From Burkholderiales bacterium (GTDB lineage Bacteria; Pseudomonadota; Gammaproteobacteria; Burkholderiales; SG8-39), in the NCBI GenBank assembly GCA_035499735.1, contig DATJYC010000049.1:147070-211069 (forward strand): a stretch of 64,000 nucleotides of DNA, written 5' to 3'. Positions 16,935-34,290 of the stretch are shown in pieces. The notes beneath the pieces were generated by a model that was not told where the DNA came from, made no database searches, and saw only the letters and a program-made list of their open reading frames with translations. Position 1 is the stretch's first letter; every line of letters begins with the position of its first letter. The position numbers and the translations under genes were made by a program.

Positions 16935-18092
16935 ATGGCTGACATCGAACTCATGTCCGGACAGGTCCTGTTCCAGGAAGGCGCGGCCAGCCGGCATATC
17001 TACCGCGTCGTTTCAGGCGAGATCGAAGTCAGCCGTCGGATGGGGGACGGCGTTGCCGTCCTGGGGCGCGTCGGGTCCGGGAGCTTCGTCGGCGAGATGG
17101 GCACTCTGGTGTGGGCGCCCCGCAGCGGCACGGCGCGGGCCGTCTCGGACACGGTTCTGAGACGCTACCGCCGCAGCGAGTTTCTCGCGGAAATCGTCCG
17201 CGACCCGGATCTCTCGGCGCAGGTGCTCAACGGCCTGAGCCTTCGTTCGCGCGCGCAGATTGAGTTTCTGCGCGGCGCGCCGGCGCCGAGCAGGCGCGCG
17301 TCGGGTCTCCAACGCTTCATCGAGGCATTGCGCTCGCTCCTCAAGCGGGCGCCGCACCAGGGCGCGCTGCGCGTCGCCATCGAGAGATCCGGATTCACGC
17401 GCTGCGAATTCGAGCCGGGATGCGCCCTGTTCGAGGAAGGCTCGCCATCCGACAGCGTCTTCTGGATCGAGTCCGGTCGGGTCCTCGTCCGCACCCGGGA
17501 CAACAGCGGAGCCGACCGGCGCGCAGGGCACGCCCGAGCCGGCGAATTTCTCGGCGAGATGGGAGTGCTCGAGTCGCTGCCCCGCTCGGCCACCGCGATC
17601 GCCGCCGCGGAGGTGGCGGCCTACAGGATGTCCCCCGAGGAGTTCAGCGCGCTGCTGCGGCGCTCGCCCGCCGCGGTGCTCACTGTGATCGACGCGCTTT
17701 GCGAGCGCGCGCGACGCACCCACAGGCGCAGCGCCGCCTGGGACGGCCGTGCCGGCAACCTGCTCGATGCCCTGCGTACCGTGGACAGCATGGCGCAGCT
17801 GGCCGAGCAGCGGCTCGTGGACGAGGCGCACCGCGTCCGCGCCTACGTCGCGGTACAGTGGGGACGCGGGAAAGCCATGACCGCGACCTACCACAAGTAC
17901 CTGCGGGGCGCGGCCACCCGCGAGGAGATGGAGCAGGCGAACGCGGTGCTGCGCGACTACCTCAAGATCGCGGGCCTCGGCACCCTGCTCATCCTGCCCG
18001 GCGCGCCCGTCACCATTCCCCTGGTCGCGAAGCTCGGCAAAGCGCTCGGCGTCGACATCTTCCCGAAGGACGTGGAAGCGGAGACGAACTGA
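16935..18092 (+). CDS. Protein with two cyclic-nucleotide-binding domains and a LETM1-like C-terminal segment
   Basis: Two cNMP-binding-like modules (FQEGAAS...FVGEMG and FEEGSPS...FLGEMG). The C-terminal KYLRGAATREEMEQANAVLRDYLKIAGLGTLLILPGAPVTIPL segment resembles LETM1-type motifs. Confidence 0.7.
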   Translation: MADIELMSGQVLFQEGAASRHIYRVVSGEIEVSRRMGDGVAVLGRVGSGSFVGEMGTLVWAPRSGTARAVSDTVLRRYRRSEFLAEIVRDPDLSAQVLNGLSLRSRAQIEFLRGAPAPSRRASGLQRFIEALRSLLKRAPHQGALRVAIERSGFTRCEFEPGCALFEEGSPSDSVFWIESGRVLVRTRDNSGADRRAGHARAGEFLGEMGVLESLPRSATAIAAAEVAAYRMSPEEFSALLRRSPAAVLTVIDALCERARRTHRRSAAWDGRAGNLLDALRTVDSMAQLAEQRLVDEAHRVRAYVAVQWGRGKAMTATYHKYLRGAATREEMEQANAVLRDYLKIAGLGTLLILPGAPVTIPLVAKLGKALGVDIFPKDVEAETN

Positions 18093-18093
18093 C

Positions 18094-19716
18094 TCAGATG
18101 TCCGTCCGCCGGCGCCGATCCTGCCTGCGGCGGTTGCCATCGAGAACGGACGCGTCGCCGGACCGCTGCTCGGCGCCGGTCGCGACGTCCCGGCGGTCCC
18201 GGCCCCTGCGGCGATCAACGAAAGCGGCCTTCTGCCCCGCCTTCAGCGCGGCAAGCCAGCGAATTCCCTCGCGATCGATGTAGTAGCACTCGGAGAAATC
18301 GATGACCACCTCTTCCGTGCCTGCGAGAGCTCTGTGATACATGGACTCGATCACCGGAAGCGAGCCGTAGTAGATGTTGCCCCGGATCTTCAGGACGTTG
18401 CCGCGCAGGCTGATGTCGGGATGCGCCTGCTGCCACTTGGAATAGGCGATGGCAAGCGCCGAGCCGACGAGAACGGCCTCGAAGAGATCGAGGAAAAGAA
18501 CCGAGAGGAAGGACGCCATGAACACGGTTGCTTCGTGCCGGCTCTGGAGGTGCGGCTTGATGTCTTCCCAGTTGATCATATTGGCGCCGAGCAGCACGAT
18601 GATCCCTGCCATCGCGGGCATGGGTATGACCGCGATCGCCCTGGCGAGAAACACCACCAGCAGCAGCAGCCACAGCGCGGAGCTAGCAATCGCGATACGG
18701 CTGTGTATCCCCAGCTTGTTCACGAGCCACATGCGGTTGAAAGACGCGCAGGTGGGCAGCGAGGATAGAAACGGCAGAAGGCAGTTGGAGACGGCATCGG
18801 AGAAAATGGCTTTGCGGCTGTCCGTAAAGCCGCCGACCTTGCGGCTCATGCGGCGCATGGCCGCCACCGTCTGAAACAGCCCGAGCAGGGCCAGTGTCAG
18901 GGCGCCGGGGAGGATGGAGATGACATCCGGCATCGACTCCTGATTGAACAGCGGCATTGACGGCAGTACGAAGCCGATGGAAGACAGGTTGCCAATCTGC
19001 TCGATCAGCGTGTTCTGTAGTCCCAGCGTCGCGTTCAGGTACTGCGAGTAGAGCGTGCCGGCCGCGATGCCGAAAAGGATCGCCCAGTTTCGCAGCCGCT
19101 CGAACTGCTGGACGACGACGCAGGTCAGCAGCGTGACGAGCCCGATCTGGATCGCGTAAAGGTTGCCGATCTCCAGCAATGCGAGAAGCGACTGCCAGGC
19201 GATCCACAGCGGCCACTCCACCTCGGTGTTGAGCGGCAACCCGGCGAACGTGGTCAGCGACCGGAAGATCAGGATCAGGCCGATGCCGCAGATCATGCCG
19301 TTGATCACGGGCTCGCTGATGAGGTCCAGCATGCGGCCCAGGGGACGGACGAGGTAGAACATCAGCTGGATCAGCCCGGCCATGAGGCCCAGGGTGAGCG
19401 CGAGGCCCATGTATTCCGCGCCGAACGGCGGGGCCGTGGGTAGCAGGGTGACCCCGATCGAGGCCGACATGGCGGTATTGGGTCCTCCGTGGAAGACCCG
19501 CGACGGGTTGAGCAGGCTGCAGAACAGCACGCCCCAGATGGCGGCATAGATGCCGAAGTGCGGAGGCACGCCGGCAAGGGTGACGGAAAAGGCCACCGCC
19601 TGCGGCAGCGTCACCAGAGCCAGGGTCAGGCCGACCACCAGATTGCGGCTTAGCCCGGGCCAGCGCTCGACGACGAAGGCCCGGTATTTTCCCGCAAGCG
19701 CCGCCGACTTCATCAT
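18094..19716 (-). CDS. SulP-family anion permease with C-terminal STAS domain and Arg-rich tail
   Basis: Start MMKSAALAG at 19716 overlaps the upstream stop (ATGA). Multi-TM SulP sequence, STAS-like segment (VVIDFSECYYIDREGIRWL) and RRRGRDRR...RRRQDRRRR tail. The track ORF to 20082 is an over-extension. Confidence 0.85.
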   Translation of the reverse strand: MMKSAALAGKYRAFVVERWPGLSRNLVVGLTLALVTLPQAVAFSVTLAGVPPHFGIYAAIWGVLFCSLLNPSRVFHGGPNTAMSASIGVTLLPTAPPFGAEYMGLALTLGLMAGLIQLMFYLVRPLGRMLDLISEPVINGMICGIGLILIFRSLTTFAGLPLNTEVEWPLWIAWQSLLALLEIGNLYAIQIGLVTLLTCVVVQQFERLRNWAILFGIAAGTLYSQYLNATLGLQNTLIEQIGNLSSIGFVLPSMPLFNQESMPDVISILPGALTLALLGLFQTVAAMRRMSRKVGGFTDSRKAIFSDAVSNCLLPFLSSLPTCASFNRMWLVNKLGIHSRIAIASSALWLLLLVVFLARAIAVIPMPAMAGIIVLLGANMINWEDIKPHLQSRHEATVFMASFLSVLFLDLFEAVLVGSALAIAYSKWQQAHPDISLRGNVLKIRGNIYYGSLPVIESMYHRALAGTEEVVIDFSECYYIDREGIRWLAALKAGQKAAFVDRRRGRDRRDVATGAEQRSGDASVLDGNRRRQDRRRRTDI

Positions 19717-20810
19717 CGGCCCTGTTCTGGCCCCGCCCGGGGTTCGTCGCCGCGCGCCGATCCGCTCATCCGCAGCAGGGGAGGCAGGACCTTCATCAGG
19801 ATCTGCTGGACGAGCGCGACGACAGGCCCCTGTCGGTCGCCCGCAGGCCTGGGCAGGTTGCTGAGGTAGTAGGCGATATCGCGGCATTCCTGGTTGGGCA
19901 AGGTGTTCTCCTTCCCCAGGGGCATATTCCGGCAGATGAACCCGGGGAGGATCGTCGAGACGTAATAGAAATAGTTGCGCGACTGCATGTTCCAGGCATT
20001 GGGCCCGGCGATCGCGGGCGCCACGAGATGGCCCTCTGCGTCCACCACGCCGAAGGCCTGGGGGCCGTGGCAGCTGGCACACTTGTGCTTGTAGAGCGCT
20101 TCGCCGCGAACATAATCGTCGCCCTGCTTGGGCGTGGCGGACGCGGGAATCTCGTCGATACCCTGCTCGTCGTAGCGGTTGCCTATCTTCATGTCCAGCG
20201 CGGCCGAGAGGAAGCGGCTATAGGACGTGACGTCGCGTATGACGTCATCGGCGATGTTGGGCTTGTAGCCGTTGGACGAGTTGATGTAGCACTGCATCTG
20301 CCGCAGCTCGAAGGGCAGCAGCAGCCCGGTAAAACGGTCGTACATGTCCGCCATCGTCCACGAGGCGCCGAGATTCAGCGAGCCGACCAGCCGGTTGCCT
20401 GCCGGATCCTGCTTGTCCCCGATGCTCTGGTGGCAGTGCCGGCACGCCGTATGGGAACCGCGGATGAACCGCTTGGCATTCCAGCGCTCGTGGTCGGGAT
20501 CGCTGGCTAGGCGCCCCTGGGTGTCATCGATGATGTTGCACCCGCGCTGGATGGCGCGAACATCGTCGTCGGAGTAGCCGCGTGCAGTGACCTTTGCGCC
20601 GGTGCGCTGCAGGACGTAGGGGGACTGGTAGACCTCGCCGCTCTCGAGGCCGTAGCGCGCGAGCTTTTCGGTGCAGGCCGGCGTCAGCGAGACCTCCGCG
20701 TGCCGGATGGCTTCCCTTTGGGCGTGTTCGTAGGTCGCCAGGAGGTAAAGTCCTCCGCAGGCGATTGCCAGCACCAGAAGCTTCATGAGTCTTTCGGCGA
20801 GCATGGACAT
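19713..20810 (-). CDS. Membrane-anchored diheme c-type cytochrome, TsdA (thiosulfate dehydrogenase)-like
   Basis: N-terminal TM helix and two CxxCH motifs (CRHCH, CASCH). A conserved Cys (RQMQCYINSSNG) lies downstream of heme 1. The C-terminal half resembles TsdA domain II (GEALYKHKCASCHG...ICRNMPLG...ECRDIAYYL). Confidence 0.75.
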   Translation of the reverse strand: MSMLAERLMKLLVLAIACGGLYLLATYEHAQREAIRHAEVSLTPACTEKLARYGLESGEVYQSPYVLQRTGAKVTARGYSDDDVRAIQRGCNIIDDTQGRLASDPDHERWNAKRFIRGSHTACRHCHQSIGDKQDPAGNRLVGSLNLGASWTMADMYDRFTGLLLPFELRQMQCYINSSNGYKPNIADDVIRDVTSYSRFLSAALDMKIGNRYDEQGIDEIPASATPKQGDDYVRGEALYKHKCASCHGPQAFGVVDAEGHLVAPAIAGPNAWNMQSRNYFYYVSTILPGFICRNMPLGKENTLPNQECRDIAYYLSNLPRPAGDRQGPVVALVQQILMKVLPPLLRMSGSARGDEPRAGPEQGR

Positions 20811-20813
20811 AGG

Positions 20814-21368
20814 CTATTTGGCTTTCCTCAGGGCGCCTTCGCTGAGCTGCAGGTGATGCGAGACCGTGCGTGCGAAAAGGCGAATGTCGCGGACCGCAGG
20901 CTCGTAGATGGTTGGCACGAAGCCGTTCATCGGGCCGGCGTAGCAACGCCTCACCCTGTCCTCGAAGGACAGTCGAATTCCAAGCTTGGGGTCGACGCGG
21001 TCGGAGTTGACGAAGGCATAGGCCATATCCTCCGCCGTATGACAGGAGCCGCAGGCGTTGACGCGGTCGCCGGCGGTCTTGCGTGTGAAGCGCGGCGCGT
21101 ATTTGTAAGTGTAGAAGACGAGGTTGTATCCGCTCTGGACCGCGCGCACGAACTGGCCGTCATCTCCGAAGTAGCTGACCCCGTACTCGGCGCTGAACTT
21201 CTCCCATCCGGGCTCCGACGACACTTCAGAGCGAAACGTTTGCACGCCCGACCCCAGATGCGCCCAGAGAACGAAGGCGACAATCAGTCCGACGACCGCG
21301 AACACCCCGCGCCGCGTCGGCTCCACGGACCCTTCGCGCTCCGTCTCCGTCGCCTCGTCCATAGCCAT
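20814..21368 (-). CDS. Membrane-anchored monoheme c-type cytochrome, TsdA domain-I-like
   Basis: TM helix and a single CGSCH motif. Also SGYNLVFYTYKYAPRF...ACGSCH and RVRRCYAGPMNG motifs as in TsdA/SoxA-type heme domains. The start is ATG 21368 or GTG 21401. Confidence 0.7.
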   Translation of the reverse strand: MAMDEATETEREGSVEPTRRGVFAVVGLIVAFVLWAHLGSGVQTFRSEVSSEPGWEKFSAEYGVSYFGDDGQFVRAVQSGYNLVFYTYKYAPRFTRKTAGDRVNACGSCHTAEDMAYAFVNSDRVDPKLGIRLSFEDRVRRCYAGPMNGFVPTIYEPAVRDIRLFARTVSHHLQLSEGALRKAK

Positions 21369-21378
21369 GGTTCTAGGT

Positions 21379-22236
21379 CTACCGCGCGATGCCTTCCGCA
21401 CCGAAGACCGCGGTCGTCATGCGGCGATGGGGCTCGTAGTCTCGGTCTCCCGCTCTCCCGAGCTTGGTCGTTCCGGCGGCCTTGAGCACCTCGCGGCCGG
21501 CAGCGCTATTGCCGAGGTCCACCAGGACTGCCTGGACCTCCTGGCGCAGCTTTGCCGGCATGGAGCGCTTCACGGCCCACGGCAGGAAAAGCAACGGCTC
21601 AGTCGACGCCAGGACTCTGAGTTGCTGCGTGTCAATCGCCTTCCTCACCACCGGGAGGTCGACGAGAATGTCTCCGCCGCCGGCGGCATCGGCCTGCTTG
21701 TGGTAGAGAGCGATCAGTGCATTCGGGGGGTTGACCGCGAGCTCGGTCTTGAAATCCCCTTCCTTCAGCCCGGCCCGCATGAGCAAATACCGCGGGGCGA
21801 TATAGCTGAGCATCGCGTCCCTGCCGCCGCCGAAGATGATCGTGCGCCCGCGCAGCTGGGATACCTTGGTGATGCCGCTGTCCTTGCGCACGTAGAGCGC
21901 GCCTGCGACCGCGTCCTTGCCGAACTCCTGGCTGTGGGCGATCACCTGATAGCTCTGGGCCGAGCGGATGAAGTGGTACTGGTTGTAGTGGACGATGTCG
22001 TAGCGCCGGCTGGTGACTCCTTCCCAGAAGGAGTCGAAATCCTTGGACGTGAGGAGCGCGACTTTGCGGCCGAGCTTCTCGCCCAGGTAGTTGGCGAGAG
22101 GTGAGAACTTCGTGATCGTTTCGGTGGCCTTGTACCGCGGGAAGATCCCCATGGTCAAAGAATCGTCCGCGGCGTGGACGACGGGCGCCACTGCGGCCAT
22201 CGCGATCAACCCGAGCGCGGGGATGAATCGATTCAT
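21379..22236 (-). CDS. PhnD-type (phosphonate-binding fold) periplasmic binding protein, copy 2
   Basis: Start MNRFIPALGLIAMAAVAPVVHA (signal peptide) at 22236, with ATGA overlap to the copy 1 stop. PhnD-like sequence. No ABC permease or ATPase lies nearby. Confidence 0.8.
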   Translation of the reverse strand: MNRFIPALGLIAMAAVAPVVHAADDSLTMGIFPRYKATETITKFSPLANYLGEKLGRKVALLTSKDFDSFWEGVTSRRYDIVHYNQYHFIRSAQSYQVIAHSQEFGKDAVAGALYVRKDSGITKVSQLRGRTIIFGGGRDAMLSYIAPRYLLMRAGLKEGDFKTELAVNPPNALIALYHKQADAAGGGDILVDLPVVRKAIDTQQLRVLASTEPLLFLPWAVKRSMPAKLRQEVQAVLVDLGNSAAGREVLKAAGTTKLGRAGDRDYEPHRRMTTAVFGAEGIAR

Positions 22237-23102
22237 GGAACGGCGCGGACCGTGCGCCTGGCCGGGCGCTCCGAACCGAATACCGCGGCCACCATTCTGC
22301 GATGCGGGTCGTAGTCCCGGTCTTCGGCTCTTTCCATTCCGGTCATGGTGGCTGCCTTGAGGACATCCCTCCCGGCCTCGCTGTCCGCGAGATGCACGAG
22401 CAGCGATTGAATGGACTCCCGCAGCTTTGCCGGCATGGAGCGCTTCACGGCCCACGGCAGGTACAGCAGCGGCTCGCTCGTCGCCAGGACTCTGAGCTGC
22501 TGCGTGTCGATCGCATTCTTCACCACGGGTTGCTCGATGAGCAGCTCTCCGCCGCCTGCGGCGTCGGCCTGCTTGTGGTAGAGAGCGATCAGCGCGTTCG
22601 GGGGGCTCACGGCGAGCTCGGTCTTGAAGTCCTCTTCCTTCAGCCCGGCCTGCATGAGCAGATACCGCGGGGCAATGTAGCTGAGCATCGCGTCCTTGCC
22701 GCCGCCGAAGATGATCGTGCGCCCGCGGAGCTGGGTTACCTCGGTGATGCCGCTATCCTTGCGCACGTAGAGCGCTCCAGCGACGGCGTTCTTGCCGAAC
22801 TCCTGGCTGTGGGCGATAACCTGATAGCTCTGGGCCGAGCGGATGAAGTGGTACTGGTTGTAATGGACGATGTCGTAGCGCTGTACGCTGACCGCGTTCC
22901 AGAACGACTCGAAATTCTTGGATGTAACCAACGTCACCTCGCGGCCGAGTCGCTCGCCAAGATACGCCGCCATCGGCGCAAATTGCCGTACCGTTTCCGC
23001 GGAATTGTTTCGGGGGAAGACGCTCAGGGTCAGCGGTTCTTCGGCGGCTTGGGCGATGCCCGCGGCGGCGAGCGCGGCCAAGGCGAGAGACCGGATCCTC
23101 AC
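22233..23102 (-). CDS. PhnD-type periplasmic binding protein, copy 1
   Basis: GTG start at 23102 (VRIRSLALAALAAAGIAQA signal) overlaps the TGA of the GGDEF-EAL gene (GTGA). Paralogue of copy 2. Confidence 0.8.
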   Translation of the reverse strand: MRIRSLALAALAAAGIAQAAEEPLTLSVFPRNNSAETVRQFAPMAAYLGERLGREVTLVTSKNFESFWNAVSVQRYDIVHYNQYHFIRSAQSYQVIAHSQEFGKNAVAGALYVRKDSGITEVTQLRGRTIIFGGGKDAMLSYIAPRYLLMQAGLKEEDFKTELAVSPPNALIALYHKQADAAGGGELLIEQPVVKNAIDTQQLRVLATSEPLLYLPWAVKRSMPAKLRESIQSLLVHLADSEAGRDVLKAATMTGMERAEDRDYDPHRRMVAAVFGSERPARRTVRAVP

Positions 23103-25204
23103 TCTCGTTCCTTCTTCGAGTGCAACAGGGGTTCCTCGATCGCCAGGGAGTTCGCGCGGCCCCTGCGTGCGAAGGACATCCGGGGCGCCTCCGGTCGAGC
23201 CTGCAGACCTTTCAGGTAGTCGAAGTAAGCCTCGTCGGTCATCGGCTTGCCGAAGAGATAGCCCTGCGCGAAGTCGCACCCCTGCGACGAGACGAACCCC
23301 AGCTGGTCCTCGTTCTCGACACCCTCCGCGACCATGGCGAGGTCCAGCCCCTTGGCCATCGCCAGGATCGCCTTGACGAGCAGGACGTCGTCCTCGTTGT
23401 CCGGTAGCCCGGCGACGAAGCTGCGGTCGATCTTCAGCACGTCGAAGCGGAAACGCTTGAGATAGCTGAGCGACGAGTAGCCGGTGCCGAAGTCGTCCAG
23501 CGACAGCTTGACCCCAGTGGCGCGCAAGCGGTCCAGTTCCTCGGCCACCTGGTGGTGATCGTCGAGCAGGACGCTCTCGGTGATCTCCAGCTCGAGCGCT
23601 TCGGGAGGCACGCCGTAGGCCGACATCAGCTCCGTGAGCCGCGCCGAGAATCGCCGCCGGAACTGAATGCGGGAAATGTTGATGGCCAGGAAGCCCGGGT
23701 GGATCCCGCTTTCCCGCCACGTCGACCAGCTGCGGCAGGCCTGCTCGAGAACCCAGTCGCCGATGCCGACGATCTGGCCGTCGTTCTCCGCGATCGGAAT
23801 GAATTCCGCGGGGCTGATCGCGCCCCTCTCGGGATGATTCCAGCGCAGCAGCACCTCGGCGCCACGGTGCCGCCGGGCGGCCGTGTCGACGATGGGCTGG
23901 AAGGCGAGCTTAAGCTGTCCCGCCTCGATCGCGCCGCGAAGGTCCTGCTCGAGCTGGACGCGCTTTCGCAGCCGCGTGTTCATCTCGTTCGTGAAGAAGG
24001 TGAAGGAGCCGCGGTGATTCGTCTTCGCCTGGTACATGGCGTTGTCGGCGTTGGCGACAAGGGTTTCCGCGTCCTCGCCGTTGTCCGGGAAGAGCGCGAT
24101 GCCGATGCTGGACTGGGCGATGACCCTGCGCCCGCCGAGTTCCTGCGGCTCGGCCACGGCCAGCAGCAGTCGCTCCGCGATCTTCTCCACGTGCATTTCG
24201 CCCACGATGTCGGAGGCCAGCACCAGGAATTCGTCCCCGCCGAGGCGCGCGACCGTGTCCCCCTCCCGCAAGGCGGCCTGCACGCGGTTCCCGATCGCGA
24301 TCAGCAGCCGGTCGCCCACCGCATGACCCAGCGTATCGTTGACGTTCTTGAAGTTGTCGAGGTCGACGAAGAACACGGCGAATTTCTGCCCCGACCGCCT
24401 GGCCCGGTTGATCTCGACGTTGATCCGGTCGAACGCCATCAGCCGGTTGGGCAGACCGGTCAGCGTGTCGAAATTGGCCTGGCGGTGAAGCTTGTCCTGC
24501 TCCTCCCTCACGCCCTCGGCCATGGTGTTGAAGGCCCGTGTAAGGAGCCCCAGCTCGTCCGAGGACTTTACTTCCACGAGGGCGTGAAGACCCCGGCCCA
24601 CGTCGCGCGAGGCGGCGATCAGCTTCTGCACCGGCTGCAGCACGCGGTAGCGGAAGACGGTGTGGATCGCAATGCTCAGAAAGAGGACGACGCCGGCGAG
24701 GGCCAGCAGCTTGACCGCAAGCTGGCGGCGGAATTCATCGTGCAGGGCCTCGCGGCTCAGCCCCACCAGAAAATGCCCCAGGATCTTTCCGTCGTGGCTG
24801 ATGGGAAAGCGCAGGTTGATGAGCTCTTCGCGGGCGACCGGGAGCTTCAGGAGCTCGACGACGTTGCGCGGGGCGTTCTGCATGTACTTCTTGACGAACG
24901 GCTCGCTGTCGTCGACATGAGAGCTCAGGATCTCGCCCTCCGGGCTCATGATTGCACCGTAGACCACGTCCGGCTGAGTGCTGACCTCGCGCGTGTAGTC
25001 GTTGAGCAGCAGGAAATCGAAGCCGAGGATCGCCTCCGGGCTCACCAGGGCGATCAGGCGGCCGAGCGCGCGCCCGCGTTCGATCAGCTGCTGCTCGTGG
25101 AAACGCGCCGACGCCTCGAGATCGTAGAGCGTATTTGCCGCCGTGGTGACGGCCAAGAAGATCAGGACGGTGAGGGTGAATTTCGCGCCCAGACCAAGCC
25201 GCAT
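23099..25204 (-). CDS. Membrane sensor with periplasmic domain, HAMP, GGDEF (with RxxD I-site) and EAL domains
   Basis: Start MRLGLGAKFTLTVLIFLAV at 25204 and a second TM (LLALAGVVLFLSIAI). Also HAMP, REGDTVARLGGDEF, and the EAL signatures LEITES, DDFGTGYSSL, KIDRSF and EGVE. The track ORF to 25597 is an over-extension. Confidence 0.88.
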   Translation of the reverse strand: MRLGLGAKFTLTVLIFLAVTTAANTLYDLEASARFHEQQLIERGRALGRLIALVSPEAILGFDFLLLNDYTREVSTQPDVVYGAIMSPEGEILSSHVDDSEPFVKKYMQNAPRNVVELLKLPVAREELINLRFPISHDGKILGHFLVGLSREALHDEFRRQLAVKLLALAGVVLFLSIAIHTVFRYRVLQPVQKLIAASRDVGRGLHALVEVKSSDELGLLTRAFNTMAEGVREEQDKLHRQANFDTLTGLPNRLMAFDRINVEINRARRSGQKFAVFFVDLDNFKNVNDTLGHAVGDRLLIAIGNRVQAALREGDTVARLGGDEFLVLASDIVGEMHVEKIAERLLLAVAEPQELGGRRVIAQSSIGIALFPDNGEDAETLVANADNAMYQAKTNHRGSFTFFTNEMNTRLRKRVQLEQDLRGAIEAGQLKLAFQPIVDTAARRHRGAEVLLRWNHPERGAISPAEFIPIAENDGQIVGIGDWVLEQACRSWSTWRESGIHPGFLAINISRIQFRRRFSARLTELMSAYGVPPEALELEITESVLLDDHHQVAEELDRLRATGVKLSLDDFGTGYSSLSYLKRFRFDVLKIDRSFVAGLPDNEDDVLLVKAILAMAKGLDLAMVAEGVENEDQLGFVSSQGCDFAQGYLFGKPMTDEAYFDYLKGLQARPEAPRMSFARRGRANSLAIEEPLLHSKKERE

Positions 25205-25442
25205 TACGTCTCCCCTAGTCCCGTACAGTGCGGGTGTGCGTTCATTTGAAGCGAGCCGATGTGCCCGGACAGGCGGGCAGCCAATCGGCGCTGCGGAGTT
25301 TAGTTTACCCCAAGGTCCGACGGAAGCCCCTTGGTTTGTTTGGGCAATATCGGGAATTCCGGAACTAGTCGGCGGCGGGCGTCGTTCAGGAGCACCCGGA
25401 CCCGTACCTGACAAGAATAGTAGGGTTTCCCCCACGTGGGAC

Positions 25443-28052: not shown

Positions 28053-29177
28053 ATGATCCGCGCATTGAAGCAGTTGGCCGTGGCCTTGACCGCGGCGCTT
28101 GCGCTCGCCGCGCAGGCCGCGGCCCAGCCCATCGAGAGCGAGCTCGTTCTCATCACCCCGGTCGCGAAGACCCTTACCGACCCTTCGCTCGCCGAGTTCG
28201 CCAAGTACGCCAAGGAGCGCTGGAACGTCACGGTCAAGACGAGCGCGCTCGCGGCCGGCACGCCGGTCGCCTACGGCCAGATCGTCGAATGGAAAGGCCG
28301 GCCCCAGGCCGACATCTTCTGGGGCGGCGAGAGCGCGCTCTTCGACAAGCTCGCAGACCAGAATCTCCTCGCCAAGCTCGATCTGTCCAAGGCGGTCGTC
28401 GACGCGGTCCCCGCGAGCATCGGCAAGCCCAAGCCCATACCGCTCAAGGACCCGCGGGGCTTCTGGATCGGAACGGTGCTCGAGCCCTACGGCCTGGTCT
28501 ACCATCCGCGGCTGCTCGCGCGCCTGGGCGTTCAGCCGCCCAAGGACTGGGACGACCTGCTCGATCCCAAGCTCAAGGGCAACGTCGCCCAGTGCGCGCC
28601 GACGCGCTCCTCCAGCAGCCACGCGACCTACGAGGTCATCCTGCAGCGCGACGGCGACGCCAAGGGCTGGGAGTTCCTGAAGCACCTGGGCGGCAACACG
28701 GGCATCTTCACAGCGCGCAGCCGTGACGTGCCCTCGGTCGTCGCCAAGGGCGAGTTCGCGGCGGGCTTCGCCGTGCCGAGCTACATGGCCTTCGAGGACC
28801 GTCTTTCGGGCTTCGACATCAAGTTCGTCGCGCCGAAGACCGCGTGGATCACGCCCGAACCGATCGCGGTAATCGCAGGTGCGCCACACCCCAAGGCGGC
28901 GCGCGCCTTCATCGAGTTCATGCTCGCCGAGCGCGGGCAGAAAGTCGCGATGGAACGGGGCGTGTTCCCGATCACGCCCAAGTACCGCGTTCAGGGCGCG
29001 CCGGGCTCGCCTGCGGAGATGGCGGTCGAGTTCACCGGGGGCCTGCGCTCCTACTTCGACGTCGAAGTAAACAATATCTATGACGACTCGATCGCGCAGA
29101 AGCGCTACGAGGAGGTCAACGCCCAGTACCGCAAGGATATCGAGTCGGTTGCCGAGGAGCTGAAGAAGAAATACTGA
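28053..29177 (+). CDS. ABC transporter periplasmic substrate-binding protein (family-1, Fe3+/2-aminoethylphosphonate-like)
   Basis: Signal peptide MIRALKQLAVALTAALALAAQAAA and SBP family-1-like sequence. It is the first gene of an SBP-ATPase-fused permease operon. Confidence 0.8.
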   Translation: MIRALKQLAVALTAALALAAQAAAQPIESELVLITPVAKTLTDPSLAEFAKYAKERWNVTVKTSALAAGTPVAYGQIVEWKGRPQADIFWGGESALFDKLADQNLLAKLDLSKAVVDAVPASIGKPKPIPLKDPRGFWIGTVLEPYGLVYHPRLLARLGVQPPKDWDDLLDPKLKGNVAQCAPTRSSSSHATYEVILQRDGDAKGWEFLKHLGGNTGIFTARSRDVPSVVAKGEFAAGFAVPSYMAFEDRLSGFDIKFVAPKTAWITPEPIAVIAGAPHPKAARAFIEFMLAERGQKVAMERGVFPITPKYRVQGAPGSPAEMAVEFTGGLRSYFDVEVNNIYDDSIAQKRYEEVNAQYRKDIESVAEELKKKY

Positions 29178-29181
29178 AGCT

Positions 29182-30249
29182 GTGCGGATCAGCGTCCACG
29201 AGATCACCAAGCGGTTCGGAAAAAACGAGGTCGTCGGGCGCTCGAGCTTCTCGATCGGGGAGGGGGAGCTGTTCACCCTCCTCGGTCCCTCGGGCTGCGG
29301 GAAAACGACGCTACTGCGGCTGATCGCGGGCTTCTACACCCCGGACGAGGGCGAGATACGCTTCGACGGCGTTCGCGTGAACGAGATGCCGCCGCACGAG
29401 CGCGGCATCGGCATGGTGTTCCAGAACTATGCGCTTTGGCCGCACATGACGGTGCACAGCAACGTCGCTTACGGCCTGAAGCTGCGCGAGGTCGGGCGCG
29501 CCGATATCCAGAGGCGGGTAGAGGGCGTTCTCGACAAGGTGCGGCTCGCCGGGCTGGGCGAGCGCTACCCCGGCCAGCTCTCCGGCGGCCAGCAGCAACG
29601 CGTGGCGCTCGCCCGGGCGCTCGTGCTCAACCCCAAGATCCTGCTGCTCGACGAGCCGCTGTCCAACCTCGACGCCAAGATCCGCGTGCAGGTGCGTGCG
29701 GAGATCAGGAAGCTCCAGAAAGAGCTCGGCATCACCACGGTCTACGTGACGCACGACCAGGAGGAGGCCCTCACGCTCTCGGATCGCATCGTGGTGTTCA
29801 ACCAGGGGCGGGTGTTCCAGATCGGCGCGCCGAAGGATCTCTACGAGCGGCCGAGAAACCGTTTCGTCGCGGACTTCATCGGCATCAACAATCTGCTCGA
29901 CGGAACGGTGCGCTCGGCCGAGACAGGATTTCTGGTCGTCGATACGGCGCTGGGGCCGATTCGCGCCATGCCGAATGCCGAGCTTCACGCGGGCAACAGA
30001 TGCGTGATCTGCGTGCGCCCGGAGAACATCGCCGTCGGCGGCGCAGGCGCCGAGCCCAACATCGCGCGGGGGAACATCGCCTTCGCCGCGTACCTGGGGA
30101 ACACGCTGCGCTACGACGTCGACCTCGGACAGGGGATCACTTTCAAGGTCGACGACCGCGATCCCTGGCAGCACGAGCAGCGCGCGATGGGCAGCGCGGT
30201 GGAGCTGGGCTTTTCGGTCGCGAGCACGCTGGCGATTCCGGCGGAATGA
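29182..30249 (+). CDS. ABC transporter ATP-binding protein (PotA/FbpC-like with C-terminal TOBE-like domain)
   Basis: Walker A GPSGCGKTT, signature LSGGQQQRVALARAL and Walker B LLLDEPLS. GTG start. Confidence 0.9.
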   Translation: MRISVHEITKRFGKNEVVGRSSFSIGEGELFTLLGPSGCGKTTLLRLIAGFYTPDEGEIRFDGVRVNEMPPHERGIGMVFQNYALWPHMTVHSNVAYGLKLREVGRADIQRRVEGVLDKVRLAGLGERYPGQLSGGQQQRVALARALVLNPKILLLDEPLSNLDAKIRVQVRAEIRKLQKELGITTVYVTHDQEEALTLSDRIVVFNQGRVFQIGAPKDLYERPRNRFVADFIGINNLLDGTVRSAETGFLVVDTALGPIRAMPNAELHAGNRCVICVRPENIAVGGAGAEPNIARGNIAFAAYLGNTLRYDVDLGQGITFKVDDRDPWQHEQRAMGSAVELGFSVASTLAIPAE

Positions 30250-31919
30250 AGCTGCCCCGCTCTCCGCTCGCGGCTCTCGGATTTACCCTGATCTGGATGT
30301 TCCTGATCGTTTTCGTCTTCTACCCGCTCACCCGGATCTTCTACGACGCCTTCACCGACGAGGCGGGGCGGGCGACGCTCGCGAACTTCCACGAGTTCTT
30401 CACCGATTCGTTCTATCTGCGGTCGCTGTGGAAATCGCTCGCGCTCGGGGCCGCCGCGGTGATCACGACCTCGGTCGTGGGGATCGCGGTGGCCTTCCTG
30501 ATCCTGCGCTACGAGTTTCCGTACAGGAACCTCTTCTCCTACCTCACCATGCTGCCGATGATCCTCCCGCCGCTGGTGGGCGTGCTCGGCTTCGTCTTCA
30601 TCCTCGGCCGCGCGGGAACGGTGAACGTGCTTCTCGAGGAATGGCTGGGCCTCGCGCACCCGGTGAATTTCATGTACGGAGTTCACGGCGTGCTGCTCGT
30701 CGAGACCGTGCACCTCTTCCCGATGATGACGCTCAGCATTCTCGATTCGCTCGCCAAGGTCGATCCTTCGCTCGAGGAGGCGGCGCAGGGCATGGGCGCC
30801 AGAGGGTGGCGCAGGTTCTGGGACGTGACGCTGCCGCTGACCACTCCGGGCTACGTGTCGGGGGCGCTGCTCGTCTTCATCTGGACCTTCGCCGATTTCA
30901 TCACACCGCTGGTCCTGGGGGTGCAGGACCTGCTCGCCCCGCAGGCCTACCTGAACATCGTGCAGTTCGTCGACCGGCGCATCTTCCGCATGGGAATCGT
31001 CATCTCGGCGCTGCTCGTCCTCCTCGCGATAGTCTTCGTTCTTGCGGCGCGCCAGTACGTCGCGATCAAGGACTACAGCTCGCTAGCCTATTCCAGGGTC
31101 GAGCGCCGGCGCCTGGGGCCCGTGGCCCGCTGGGCCGCTGTGGGCTTCCTGTCGACGCTCATGTTCGTATCGCTCGTGCCGCAGGCGGGCGTGCTGCTTG
31201 CGGCGGTGGGCCGCGGCTGGTCGCTCACCCCGTTCCCGCTTCACTACACGCTGGAGTTCTTCGACCAGGTGAGCGTGGAGACGCCGAAGTTCATCGTGAA
31301 CTCGCTCCTCTTCTGCGGCGTCGCCGTGTTCCTGTGCCTGGCGATCGGCGTGCCGATGGCGTGGATCATGGGGCGAACGAACGCCCCCGGGCGCGGCGCG
31401 ATGGACGCGCTCACCACGCTGATGCTCGCCATTCCGGGAACCGCGGTCGGCATCGCCTACGTGCGCGCCTTCAATTTCCCTCTGCCGGTCCTCGACGTCC
31501 CGCTTACCGGCATGTGGCTGATACTTCCGCTGGTCCTCGCCGTTCGCCGCCTGCCCTACACCGTGCGCGGAAGCTACTCGTCGCTGCTCCTGGTGCACAG
31601 ATCCATGGAGGAAGCGGCGGAGAACGTCGGCGCAACCAAGCTACGCACCTTCCGCGACATCACCGTGCCCCTCGTATGGAAGGGCATCTTCGTCGGCGGC
31701 CTGTTCTCCTTCATCACCTCGATCCAGGAGGCTTCCGCGACGATATTCCTCACCCTGGGCGGGCGCGAGATGATTCCCTACGGCATCTTCAGCTTCTACA
31801 TCGCCGGCTCGCAGAGCCAGGCCGCCGCGCTGGGTGTGATCCTGATCGCGGTGTGCGCGCTGAGCCTGTTTATAGTCAACCGCGTCGCTGGCGCGCGCGT
31901 CGGCGGACTCTTCGGCTGA
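30246..31919 (+). CDS. ABC transporter permease, fused two-domain type
   Basis: ATG 30246 overlaps the upstream TGA (ATGA). About 557 aa with about 12 TM segments, resembling FbpB/ThiP/PhnU2-type fused permeases. Confidence 0.85.
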   Translation: MKLPRSPLAALGFTLIWMFLIVFVFYPLTRIFYDAFTDEAGRATLANFHEFFTDSFYLRSLWKSLALGAAAVITTSVVGIAVAFLILRYEFPYRNLFSYLTMLPMILPPLVGVLGFVFILGRAGTVNVLLEEWLGLAHPVNFMYGVHGVLLVETVHLFPMMTLSILDSLAKVDPSLEEAAQGMGARGWRRFWDVTLPLTTPGYVSGALLVFIWTFADFITPLVLGVQDLLAPQAYLNIVQFVDRRIFRMGIVISALLVLLAIVFVLAARQYVAIKDYSSLAYSRVERRRLGPVARWAAVGFLSTLMFVSLVPQAGVLLAAVGRGWSLTPFPLHYTLEFFDQVSVETPKFIVNSLLFCGVAVFLCLAIGVPMAWIMGRTNAPGRGAMDALTTLMLAIPGTAVGIAYVRAFNFPLPVLDVPLTGMWLILPLVLAVRRLPYTVRGSYSSLLLVHRSMEEAAENVGATKLRTFRDITVPLVWKGIFVGGLFSFITSIQEASATIFLTLGGREMIPYGIFSFYIAGSQSQAAALGVILIAVCALSLFIVNRVAGARVGGLFG

Positions 31920-32699
31920 ATGAGGCCGCTCGCAGAGCTCGACTCTCGCGGCGTGAAGGCCGTGCTCGTGGACATCGACGAGACGCTGACCACCCGGGGC
32001 AGGCTCACCGCGGATGCCTACGCCGCGCTCGAGCGGCTGCACTCGCACGGCAGGATAGTCGTGCCCGTCACCGGACGCCCCGCGGGCTGGTGCGACCATA
32101 TCGCGCGCATGTGGCCGGTCGACGCCGTGGTGGGCGAGAACGGCGCGTTCTACTTCTTCTACTCCGACGGCAGGCTTCACAAGCGCTTTCTCGAAGACGG
32201 GGCGGCGCGTGCGCAGAAGCGCGCCCGCCTCGACGAGATCGCCAGGCGGATCCTCAGAGATATCCCAGGCAGCGCGCTTGCGGCCGATCAGGCGTACCGC
32301 GAGACCGATCTCGCGATCGACTACTGCGAGGACGTCCCCGCGCTGCCGCTCGGGGCGGCGGAGCGCATCGCGGCGCTGATGGAGGAGCGCGGGCTCAAGG
32401 CGAAGATCAGCTCGATCCACGTCAACGGCTGGTTCGGTAGCTACGACAAGCTCGCGACCAGCCGGCTCGCATTCGCCGAGCGCTTCGCCCTGGACCTCGA
32501 TGCCTCGAACCGGGAATGCGTGTTCGTGGGCGACTCCGAGAACGACGCGCCGATGTTCGGCTTCTTCCAGAATTCGGTAGGCGTCGCCAATGTCCGCCGC
32601 TTCGAGAGTCGACTCGCCGCCGCGCCGAAGTATGTGACGCGCGAGGCGGCTGGCGCCGGTTTCGTAGAGCTCGCCGAGCATCTGCTCGGCCGCGACTGA
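31920..32699 (+). CDS. HAD-IIB family hydrolase (sugar-phosphate phosphatase-like)
   Basis: The DxD motif VLVDIDETLT, VPVTGRP and the C-terminal GDSENDAPMF motif are present. The ATG directly abuts the permease stop. Confidence 0.8.
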   Translation: MRPLAELDSRGVKAVLVDIDETLTTRGRLTADAYAALERLHSHGRIVVPVTGRPAGWCDHIARMWPVDAVVGENGAFYFFYSDGRLHKRFLEDGAARAQKRARLDEIARRILRDIPGSALAADQAYRETDLAIDYCEDVPALPLGAAERIAALMEERGLKAKISSIHVNGWFGSYDKLATSRLAFAERFALDLDASNRECVFVGDSENDAPMFGFFQNSVGVANVRRFESRLAAAPKYVTREAAGAGFVELAEHLLGRD

Positions 32700-32716
32700 G
32701 ATGCCCTGTGGCCGAC

Positions 32717-33160
32717 TCAGCGCCGCTTGGCGCGGGTGAGCAGCACCGGCACCGGCGAGCGGCGTACCACCTGCTCGGCGTCGCTCCCGAGGGCGAGCCG
32801 CGTGATCCCGCGACGTCCGTGCGTGCCCATGACGATGAGGTCGGCGCGCCACCGCTTCGCCTCCTTGACGATCACCTTGGCGGCCCGACCGGCAATCGCG
32901 ACGTAGAGCGCAGTCTGGGGAGTGACTCCTCGCCGCAGGCACAGGCGCTCGTACCGCCGCAGAAGCTCCTCGCCGCGCTCCTTCACTCGGGCGTACAGTT
33001 GCGAGGCGGGGACGTCTCCATTGCGCGTTGGCGCGAGCTCCCGCGAGAGGTGCACTAGCCGCAGGCGCGCCTTGCGCTCGCGAGCGAGCGACAGCGCAAC
33101 GCGCAGGCCCGCGGTGGAAGGCCCGCTTCCGTCAACCGGCACGAGGATGCGTCGGAACAT
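32717..33160 (-). CDS. Universal stress protein (UspA family)
   Basis: 147 aa: MFRRILVPVDGS...ADLIVMGTHGRRG...LGSDAEQVVRRSPVPVLL. Confidence 0.85.
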   Translation of the reverse strand: MFRRILVPVDGSGPSTAGLRVALSLARERKARLRLVHLSRELAPTRNGDVPASQLYARVKERGEELLRRYERLCLRRGVTPQTALYVAIAGRAAKVIVKEAKRWRADLIVMGTHGRRGITRLALGSDAEQVVRRSPVPVLLTRAKRR

Positions 33161-33288
33161 TCGTCCTGCTCCGGCGAAATGATGCCCGGTTTCGCGCGAC
33201 TCTGCTGCGCTCTGCCGGGCGCTCCGTCGTGCTAACATTCGGCGCTTCGCCCCTCCAGGGCAGCGGTCTCGGTGGAGCCGTACCGAAG

Positions 33289-34290
33289 ATGTCCACACCG
33301 GAGCTCCTCCTGGTGCTGCTCGCGGTTGCGTTCGCTTTCGATTTCCTCAACGGCGTGCACGACAGCGCGGACGCGGTCGCGACCATCATCGCCTCGCGCG
33401 CGATGAGCGCGCGGGGCGCGCTCGCCCTGGCTGCTGCCGCGAGCCTCGCGGGCCCGTTCCTCTTGGGTATCGCGGTCGCCGAGACAGTCGGCGCTGGCTT
33501 GGTGCGCCCGCAGTCGATCACCATTGCAGTCGTGATCGCAGCGCTACTTGCCGCGGGACTGTGCAACGCGGTGACCTGGTACATCGGCGTTCCGGTGAGC
33601 TCGTCGCACGCGCTGATCGGCGGCGTGGTCGGCGCGGCCGCCGCCGGCTCCGGGCTCGCCGCGGTCCAGGCGCAGGGACTGTGGAAGGTCGCGCTCGCCT
33701 TGCTCTTGTCGCCTCTGCTCGGCTTCGTCGCCGCCCTCGCGGTGATGCACGTCCTGTGGTGGCTCTTGCGCGAGGCGACTCCCAAGGCCAACGTCGCCCT
33801 CTCCAGGGCGCAGGTGCTCGCCGCGGCGGCCCTCGCCATGAGCCAGGGCGCCAACAACGCGCAGAAGACGGCCGGCATGATCTCGCTGGGACTGGTGACG
33901 CTGGGAGTGACGCCGGCATTTGCCGTGCCCTGGTGGGCTATCGCATTGAGCGCGTCGGCGATTGCGCTCGGGACGGCTGTCGGAGGACGGCGCATCATCC
34001 GCACGCTGGGAGTGCGCCTCTACCGGATCCGTCCGATCCACAGCTTCGCCGCGCAGACGTCCTCGGCGGCGGTGATCCTGGGGATGTCGTTCGCCGGAGG
34101 CCCCGTCAGCACTACGCAGGTAACCAGCCTCGCGATCGTCGGTGCGGGGGCGGCCGAGCGCAAGTCGCAGGTACGCTGGTCGGCCTTGGCGCAGATCGCC
34201 ATCGCCTGGGTGCTGACCCTGCCGGCCGCGATGCTGCTGGCGATACCGCTGCATTACCTTGTCGAGGTGATGGTGAAGCACGGAGGCTGA
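33289..34290 (+). CDS. Inorganic phosphate transporter, PiT family
   Basis: AFDFLNGVHDSADAVAT signature and a second half with GANNAQKT. ATG at 33289 lies inside the longer track ORF. Confidence 0.88.
   Translation: MSTPELLLVLLAVAFAFDFLNGVHDSADAVATIIASRAMSARGALALAAAASLAGPFLLGIAVAETVGAGLVRPQSITIAVVIAALLAAGLCNAVTWYIGVPVSSSHALIGGVVGAAAAGSGLAAVQAQGLWKVALALLLSPLLGFVAALAVMHVLWWLLREATPKANVALSRAQVLAAAALAMSQGANNAQKTAGMISLGLVTLGVTPAFAVPWWAIALSASAIALGTAVGGRRIIRTLGVRLYRIRPIHSFAAQTSSAAVILGMSFAGGPVSTTQVTSLAIVGAGAAERKSQVRWSALAQIAIAWVLTLPAAMLLAIPLHYLVEVMVKHGG

Follow-up and report, generated by a model that had tools for sequence, protein, structure and literature searches.

The DNA analysed here (the window) is a stretch of 64,000 nucleotides (nt) from a Burkholderiales bacterium, and the system in question is a cassette of six closely packed genes on its minus strand, termed G1 to G6. 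They encode a HAMP-GGDEF-EAL enzyme predicted to synthesise and hydrolyse the second messenger cyclic di-GMP (c-di-GMP), two PhnD-fold binding proteins, two c-type cytochromes and a SulP-type permease. It is proposed, tentatively, that the cassette joins a c-di-GMP switch gated by a periplasmic binding protein to a redox and transport unit of the thiosulfate/tetrathionate type. The genes are as follows, with lengths in amino acids (aa):

25204..23099, minus strand: G1, 701 aa, HAMP-GGDEF-EAL protein (from the sequence and the list of open reading frames)
23102..22233, minus strand: G2, 289 aa, GTG start, PhnD-fold binding protein
22236..21379, minus strand: G3, 285 aa, ATG start, second PhnD-fold binding protein
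21368..20814, minus strand: G4, 184 aa, monohaem cytochrome c
20810..19713, minus strand: G5, 365 aa (363 aa from the second ATG), TsdA-like dihaem cytochrome c
19716..18094, minus strand: G6, 540 aa, SulP/SLC26-type permease with a compact cytoplasmic STAS domain

Neighbouring genes of the cassette overlap or nearly touch. G1 and G2 share a GTGA overlap (23102-23099), and ATGA overlaps join G2 to G3 (22236-22233) and G5 to G6 (19716-19713). A 10-nt gap (21378-21369) lies between G3 and G4, and a 3-nt gap (20813-20811) between G4 and G5, which becomes 9 nt if G5 begins at an alternative ATG at 20804. The strong Shine-Dalgarno sequence AGGGGAG stands 6 nt ahead of the G1 ATG, and no other gene of the cassette has a strong one; that several internal starts do without a Shine-Dalgarno sequence fits translational coupling. 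In identical public contigs, belonging to a Burkholderiales metagenome-assembled genome (MAG), independent gene calls gave products of 701, 289, 285, 184, 363 and 540 aa, the sole difference being that G5 was begun at its second ATG. The six genes, their overlaps and gaps and a 238-nt spacer upstream of G1 had first been described in a sequence-only reading of the stretch, all coordinates of which were confirmed from the sequence, the open reading frame list and the independent callers.

The same reading had taken the six genes for one module, and the neighbourhood search shows that they form a conserved unit. A scan with the G5 alignment over one genome per GTDB species gave 80 loci, and the six window proteins were run by tblastn against 82 independent loci; the same co-directional cassette was found nearly everywhere. 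Its carriers are Beta- and Gammaproteobacteria, about 80 species-level genomes, in which the flanks are unrelated and the overlaps conserved, the median gaps being 3 nt for G4-G5 and -4 nt for G5-G6 (77 loci) and 13 nt for G2-G4. Three G5 homologues on long contigs stand in the same five-gene cassette with wholly different flanks. Most of the 80 loci come from uncultured Burkholderiales, and MAGs of Acidiferrobacteraceae and Ectothiorhodospiraceae are represented too. Cultured carriers are Aromatoleum toluclasticum, A. toluvorans, A. diolicum, A. toluolicum and Azoarcus sp. Aa7, together with Marinobacterium profundum, M. sedimentorum, M. rhizophilum and Motiliproteus sediminis. On this comparative evidence the arrangement goes far beyond chance, and the operon is real and old. 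In a plasmid collection only distant TsdA homologues (< 31 % identity) and no cassettes were present. The literature search found no paper describing the six-gene set, in agreement with the earlier statement that no characterised system of such composition was known to the reader.

Gene order divides the loci into types (tblastn). The order G1-G2-G4-G5-G6 occurs at about 45 loci, chiefly in Burkholderiales and other betaproteobacterial MAGs, and G2-G1-G4-G5-G6 at 20, chiefly in Aromatoleum, Azoarcus, Marinobacterium and Motiliproteus. Five loci (L062, L065, L066, L069 and L071) hold G4-G5-G6 alone, and in two of them, L062 and L066, the scanned flanks bear no relation to it. Divergence within the family is among the greatest at the sensor-less loci, whose G6 proteins are about 56-60 % identical to that of the window. 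Wherever the contig extends far enough upstream, G1 and G2 are adjacent and are jointly present or absent. By gene content, then, the cassette is made of two modules, a core triad G4-G5-G6 and a sensor pair G1-G2, the latter being acquired, lost or rearranged as a whole. The binding-protein gene keeps to G1 and not to the permease, an argument for its serving the c-di-GMP enzyme; it travels with the GGDEF-EAL gene even in the inverted order, so that the idea of a sensor partner, put forward in the sequence-only reading, has gained ground. The companion idea of G1 as the reporter of the module has to be modified, since the triad exists without the sensor and the enzyme is thus an add-on to a self-sufficient unit and not its obligatory reporter. 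At one further locus (L085, a Sedimenticolaceae MAG), a distant G5-like gene (35 % identity) is followed by a SulP gene (47 % identity) and then by an opposite-strand GGDEF-EAL-like gene, an arrangement which may be a remote variant of the module.

In G1 a transmembrane (TM) helix, a periplasmic PDC/Cache-like domain and a second TM helix are followed by HAMP (184-233), GGDEF (243-398) and EAL (420-654) domains (Pfam). Its sensory part is located as follows:

24740..25117, minus strand: periplasmic sensor domain of G1, about aa 30-155, between the two TM helices

The GGDEF motif and the RxxD I-site are each kept in 63/63 full-length homologues, and the EAL signatures E[VA]LLRW, ELE[IV]TE, DDFGTG[YF]S, KID[RQ]SF and AEGVE are conserved in the same 63 members; the signatures earlier described as intact in G1 are therefore a property of the family. 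From these motifs G1 is predicted to be a bifunctional c-di-GMP synthase/phosphodiesterase. The AlphaFold2 (AF2) model of the periplasmic domain has a single PDC/Cache-like fold with a predicted local distance difference test (pLDDT) of about 71-89. Its best Foldseek matches are the extracytoplasmic domain of WalK (model 9a5d), sensor domains of histidine kinases and of DctB, and, from the LapD orthologue CdgS9, the domain that serves as periplasmic output (4u64, target TM-score 0.74). The periplasmic domains of WalK and LapD act through the binding of partner proteins. Word-indexed searches reached close relatives only (at least 51 % identity for the G1 sensor domain, at least 69 % for G2); the sensor domain gave 54 matches, mostly fragments.

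The likeness to LapD, which extends to the domain order and the periplasmic fold, allows the signal to be imagined as running from the inside out. G1 would sense cytoplasmic c-di-GMP by its I-site or EAL domain and capture or release G2/G3 or the cytochromes, controlling the periplasmic reaction in this way. The identical TM-periplasmic-TM-HAMP-GGDEF-EAL architecture, the RxxD site of all 63 homologues and the match to 4u64 are in its favour. LapD-type receptors, however, have degenerate GGDEF and EAL motifs, and the catalytic residues of G1 are all intact and conserved; the NCBIfam LapD model, with its cut-off of 1020, gives G1 a score of 156. Among the annotated neighbouring genes no LapG-like protease appeared. 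Such an inside-out receptor is considered very unlikely, and the proposal that G1 is itself gated from the periplasm, by a binding protein, is retained.

The putative gating proteins, G2 and G3, match Pfam Phosphonate-bd (PF12974) at 3.9e-50 and 4.1e-47 and carry Sec signal peptides. Among PDB sequences G2 is closest to PtxB (8.7e-19, or 2.8e-24 with a profile), then to ArrX (4e-7), and AioX is a detectable relative. In NCBIfam it shows weak similarity to TIGR04553, a putative selenate-binding protein (1e-14), and to TtrS (2.7e-6), and scores 97.7 on the PhnD model with its cut-off of 261. An identical G2 protein is found in a Burkholderiales MAG. G2 and G3 share 75 % aa identity (BLASTP 6e-156) and fall in different, old paralogue clades, for which reason a recent lineage-specific duplication was rejected; seven further loci also have two copies of the binding-protein gene. 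At the DNA level the pair is a mosaic: aligned nucleotides ~240-690 are 88-97 % identical, and each end reaches 52-72 %. Old separate clades with a near-identical centre look like gene conversion of the central lobe.

The phosphite- and phosphonate-contacting residues of PtxB and PhnD have been defined (PMC5700983). By pairwise and profile alignments, those of Ps_PtxB map onto G2 as follows:

D16 of Ps_PtxB: R31 in G2
Y49 of Ps_PtxB: F64 in G2
Y94 of Ps_PtxB: V107 in G2
S124-T125-S126 of Ps_PtxB: A138-M139-L140 in G2 (AM[LIM] in the family)
H155 of Ps_PtxB: P167 in G2
Y203 of Ps_PtxB: L215 in G2

The replacements are invariant in 75 family members, as are N82, Q83, a GGGxD loop (GGGxDAM), Y142 and N169. 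Since every phosph(on)ate contact is replaced, G2 and G3 are predicted not to bind phosphite or phosphonate. A cognate ATP-binding cassette (ABC) transporter is missing from the cassette as well; the sole nearby ABC system of the window lies on the plus strand and has its own SBP_bac_1 protein. ABC-like sequence occurs within ±10 kb in 12/82 loci and is never adjacent, in keeping with the earlier description of these proteins as orphans.

It could nevertheless be supposed that the PhnD-type proteins deliver an anion to the SulP permease, or that they are ordinary phosphonate or phosphite binders which work with distant phnCE genes. The Pfam assignment, the similarity to PtxB and an operon shared with a transporter would be explained in this manner. 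Delivery is contradicted by the core-only loci, where SulP occurs without a PhnD-type gene, and by the behaviour of that gene when the order changes, as it stays by G1 and not by G6. Binding of phosphonates, which would have undone the sequence-only reading, is contradicted by the loss of all contact residues and by nearby ABC genes that are not conserved; phosphonate or phosphite uptake or oxidation as the task of the cassette was rejected on the same two grounds, lost contacts and absent ABC partner. Either version is highly improbable, and the assignment of the binding protein to G1 is preferred. In three Burkholderiales loci an extra, very distant PhnD-like gene (24-25 % identity to G2) lies directly downstream of the SulP gene (L034, 6323-7075; L035, 13025-13765; L044, 13180-13947).

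The use of a PhnD-fold module for sensing and not for transport has precedents in TtrS/ThsS and AioX/ArrX. PhnD-like sensor domains have been proposed to detect tetrathionate in TtrS and guided the discovery of the thiosulfate sensor ThsS (PMC5408782). The literature search found no structure of TtrS or ThsS and no residue-level data on their pockets. In contrast to these systems, the PhnD-fold protein of the cassette is free-standing and its predicted partner is a c-di-GMP enzyme instead of a histidine kinase.

The chemistry of the core triad is best approached through G5. In Pfam it is assigned generic cytochrome c domains only (Cytochrom_C), and phmmer against PDB sequences aligns its aa 118-323 with aa 44-236 of Allochromatium vinosum TsdA (1.5e-19), that is, over both haem domains. 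Its haem motifs, CRHCH (aa 123-127) and CASCH (aa 244-248), are invariant across the family. A TsdA counts as verified if it has both haem motifs, Arg119 and the axial ligands (Grabarczyk et al., PMC4423706), and in the A. vinosum enzyme Arg109, Arg119 and Ser127 bind thiosulfate beside the reactive Cys123 (PMC4423706). R170, C174 and S178 of G5 are the equivalents of Arg119, Cys123 and Ser127 and are invariant in the family alignment; Cys174, aligned with AvTsdA Cys96/123, is the candidate ligand of haem 1. The candidate ligand of haem 2 is Met296 in the sequence RNMPLG, aligned with Met209, and NMPLG is conserved across the G5 family. The haem-2 Met is strictly conserved in TsdAs and is preceded by Asn in Campylobacter jejuni TsdA and by Lys in that of A. 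vinosum (PMC5146829); with its Asn, G5 is of the C. jejuni type, unlike the A. vinosum enzyme. Two-domain homology, axial-ligand residues and active-site Arg and Ser are thus all present, and the identity to canonical TsdAs, the A. vinosum enzyme included, is about 27-31 %. As far as can be judged from sequence, G5 is a full TsdA homologue of a distinct subfamily. It differs from the known TsdAs in being membrane-anchored, its N-terminal hydrophobic anchor being followed by a conserved extension of about 90 aa, and in being always paired with a monohaem SoxA-like protein and SulP, not with TsdB. Close homologues (72-97 % identity) are abundant in metagenomes, where the Joint Genome Institute (JGI) often labels them 'thiosulfate dehydrogenase'.

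The distance of G5 from TsdA permits the same architecture to be combined with another chemistry, in which another anion or a thiol compound would be processed and sensed, for instance sulfite, arsenite, selenate/selenite, or a persulfide or thiosulfonate of organic type. This would suit a G2 pocket unlike all characterised PhnD-family pockets, the weak similarity of G2 to the selenate-binding family and to TtrS, its ArrX/AioX relatives, a G5 subfamily that is distinct and about 30 % identical to TsdA, and a SulP protein that matches no named subfamily. On the other side, G5 retains the equivalents of the thiosulfate-contacting Arg119 and Ser127 and the reactive Cys, and thiosulfate is a substrate of all characterised SoxA-family enzymes. 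A different substrate is therefore regarded as rather unlikely, and a thiosulfate/tetrathionate-type reaction is kept as the working assumption.

The second cytochrome proved to be of another kind. In G4 a hydrophobic stretch at the N-terminus, either an anchor or a signal, precedes a monohaem cytochrome c with the motif CGSCH (aa 106-110), and the protein gave no match to Pfam or NCBIfam. Its similarity is to the N-terminal domain of G5 (BLASTP 7e-10; hhalign probability 99.4 %, E 4e-21). The AF2 model (pLDDT 76) gives weak E-values in Foldseek (0.02-0.6), the top 11 matches all being TsdA, TsdBA or SoxA, and it fits 4wq7, the root-mean-square deviation being 3.0 Å over 130 columns. The family is a small one: clustered at 50 % identity, it makes up 44 clusters in a set of 1.84 billion representatives. 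Its invariants are C106, C109, H110 and C142. As C142 aligns with the haem-ligand Cys of TsdA, it is a candidate for the sixth haem ligand. On these alignments G4 corresponds to the TsdA/SoxA catalytic domain alone, SoxA-like in fold and not proven catalytic. Of the two cytochromes that the sequence-only reading had called TsdA-like, G5 is hence a full dihaem homologue and G4 is monohaem, corresponding to the TsdA/SoxA N-terminal domain only. Identification of G4 as TsdB or as a second TsdA was rejected because it is monohaem, of the His/Cys type and matched to the N-terminal domain only. A 4960-aa protein, P0162, in which '17 stretches' appeared to match G4, was dismissed as spurious for want of any CxxCH motif.

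Taken together, G4 and G5 are predicted from their ligand residues to hold two His/Cys-type haems and one of the His/Met type. Trihaem SoxAX has the same complement of two His/Cys and one His/Met haem. The likeness of G4 to SoxAX consists in the fold of the SoxA/TsdA catalytic domain, the CxxCH motif and the conserved Cys; unlike in SoxA, the invariant Arg is not conserved, and a complex of G4 with G5 can only be conjectured. In the annotated flanks of the cassette loci no soxYZ, soxB or soxCD genes were seen.

A cytochrome without the catalytic TsdA/SoxA Arg might be no enzyme, which leads to the suggestion that the cassette senses redox conditions. Low-potential His/Cys haems of G4 and G5 would report the periplasmic or respiratory state to G1, either directly or via the PhnD-fold adaptors, with SulP as a co-sensor. 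That G4, G5, G1 and G6 are all membrane-anchored favours a complex, and the hydrophobic pocket of G2 is unlike an anion site. Yet the triad occurs without G1 and G2 in the five core-only loci and so has a sensor-independent function, and the complete TsdA active site is kept in G5. DauA is a co-sensor for DctA/DcuS, and the SulP would play a comparable part. The redox relay is deemed unlikely, less probable than a change of substrate, and G4 and G5 are provisionally treated as catalysts of a SoxA-family reaction.

G6 is identified as a permease by Pfam Sulfate_transp (1.8e-44). Its STAS domain is marginal in searches with hidden Markov models (HMMs), scoring 22.0 against a cut-off of 22.6 for STAS and 23 against 29.2 for STAS_2; a compact STAS would agree with the conserved block YIDxEGIRWL. 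Profile HMMs thus recovered the families which the sequence-only reading had named (Phosphonate-bd, Cytochrom_C, Sulfate_transp and HAMP/GGDEF/EAL), with STAS just below the cut-off and G4 left unmatched. The protein ends in an unusual extension:

18097..18216, minus strand: Arg-rich tail at the C-terminus of G6 (aa 501-540, DRRRGRDRR...RRRQDRRRRTDI), facing the cytoplasm

The tail is found in 66/66 loci bearing G1/G2. It comprises a median of 51 residues after a conserved Trp, with a median of 14 Arg, contains a DRRxGxDRR block and ends in the motif DRRxR[ST][ED][FIL]. In the sensor-less loci L065, L066 and L071, G6 stops 14-16 residues past the conserved Trp with at most one Arg, and the core-only L062 has a shortened tail. 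The tail is missing from L081 too, where the upstream contig is too short to show the G1/G2 status. The sensor-less loci may be related to one another, and the correlation between tail and sensor may therefore reflect few evolutionary events. The tail is the only sequence feature found that links the c-di-GMP enzyme to the triad, and the correlation points to a permease under post-translational control. For the STAS domains of other SLC26 proteins, nucleotide binding is reported (PMC5613929).

These observations admit a more elaborate version of the proposal, a self-contained local c-di-GMP circuit. G4 and G5 would form a new SoxAX-like trihaem pair, a PhnD-fold protein reading a periplasmic sulfur oxyanion which that pair produces or consumes would gate G1, and local c-di-GMP or contact with G1 would act post-translationally on SulP through the STAS domain and the Arg-rich tail. 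The complete circuit is quite doubtful, more so than the redox relay.

The preferred interpretation is a c-di-GMP switch gated by a binding protein, of the NspS-MbaA type, attached to a redox and transport unit of the thiosulfate/tetrathionate type; it is given a probability of roughly 0.45. On the periplasmic side of the inner membrane G4 and G5 would carry out a reaction of the SoxA family, most probably the interconversion of thiosulfate and tetrathionate, or else a closely related one which forms or breaks S-S bonds. The coupled SulP-STAS protein G6 would carry the anion, be it substrate or product, in or out through this membrane. The PhnD-fold protein would bind a small molecule, probably a substrate or product of the G4-G5-G6 module, and would dock on the PDC-like periplasmic domain of G1, tipping the enzyme between c-di-GMP synthesis and hydrolysis. 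The two paralogues of the window, G2 and G3, may read two different forms of the ligand.

The nearest models are NspS-MbaA of Vibrio cholerae and Sinorhizobium and PruR-DcpA of Agrobacterium. In these systems an orphan periplasmic binding protein gates a bifunctional GGDEF-EAL enzyme (PMC8079147, PMC8967002, PMC11194511). The likeness lies in a transporter-less binding-protein gene placed beside, and presumably transcribed with, a gene for a TM-periplasmic-TM-HAMP-GGDEF-EAL protein whose two catalytic domains are intact. The folds differ, NspS being PotD-like and PruR having a pterin-binding fold in place of the PhnD fold. Unlike in either model, the pair belongs here to an operon with two c-type cytochromes and SulP, and its interaction is a prediction. 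Links between signalling and this chemistry exist elsewhere. The TtrRS system of V. parahaemolyticus activates tsdBA (PMC11293645), and in Erythrobacter flavus a diguanylate cyclase and c-di-GMP signalling are reported to be connected with TsdA-dependent thiosulfate oxidation.

Several points weigh against this interpretation. The hydroxyl-rich STS-H/Tyr anion site of the PhnD family has become largely hydrophobic in G2 and an oxyanion ligand is not evident from the residues, so that the oxyanion binding claimed for G2 and G3 in the sequence-only reading leans on gene context and not on the pocket. The invariant TsdA/SoxA Arg (AvTsdA Arg119) is not kept in the G4 family, where R, H, Q, S or K takes its position. 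With about 30 % identity to characterised TsdAs and an extra anchored N-terminus, G5 could differ in substrate, and G6 falls far below the NCBIfam cut-offs of sulP, DauA and BicA and matches no named SulP subfamily. Moreover, a c-di-GMP output by itself gives no reason for the sensor to share a transcript with the enzymes, and the functional claims as a whole are drawn from sequence and context.

The surroundings of the cassette add little to its interpretation. Upstream lies glpK, and between the two genes two features were recorded:

25205..25442, minus strand: 238-nt spacer from the glpK stop (25443) to G1
25435-25420, minus strand: hairpin resembling a terminator, its tail rich in T, immediately past the glpK stop (pattern scan)

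The hairpin is consistent with a separate transcript for the cassette, though weakly, as such sites are no more frequent than in shuffled controls. A riboswitch or other RNA element was rejected, the Rfam search of the 238-nt leader and the cassette having given no family at E <= 1. A scan for sigma-70 promoters returned zero sites and says little at 65-70 % G+C. The G+C content of the cassette is 0.63-0.66 and that of the 5 kb flanking each side 0.67-0.71 (window positions 18000-25000), with third-position GC also lower in several cassette genes; the lower G+C and the unrelated flanks elsewhere suggest that the module is mobile between genomes.

Downstream, a convergent gene (16935-18092, plus strand) encodes a 385-aa protein with two cyclic-nucleotide-binding domains. 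A single base (18093) separates its stop (18092) from that of G6 (18094), which leaves no room for an intergenic terminator. This neighbour is missing from 3/3 other cassette loci with annotated flanks. Farther away, at 28053-34290 on the plus strand, there is a separate ABC importer, composed of an SBP_bac_1 binding protein, a TOBE-domain ATPase and a fused double permease (28053-31919); behind it come a HAD-type hydrolase and a PHO4 phosphate transporter. This cluster may serve phosphorus-related uptake and appears unrelated to the cassette.

Some consequences concern annotation. A large clade labelled 'phosphonate ABC transporter substrate-binding protein' is predicted from its residues to be unable to bind phosphonate, and 'TsdA' annotations in metagenomes include the distinct G5 subfamily, to which the canonical job may not apply. 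The correlation of tail and sensor offers a possible route to second-messenger control of an SLC26-family transporter; should the circuit exist, the permease would be the first SLC26/SulP transporter under the control of c-di-GMP, and thiosulfate/tetrathionate chemistry would for the first time be seen to feed into this signal. The cultured carriers (Aromatoleum, Azoarcus, three Marinobacterium species and Motiliproteus) make the cassette open to experiment. The c-di-GMP enzymes are abundant and the signals they read are mostly unknown. If the preferred interpretation is true, a defined c-di-GMP input, namely a periplasmic binding protein tied to the redox chemistry of sulfur oxyanions, would be shared by no fewer than 80 species, among them many Burkholderiales of soil and fresh water known as MAGs. 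In the bacteria that carry it the operon may link sulfur-oxyanion chemistry outside the cell membrane to the signal for biofilm formation and motility.

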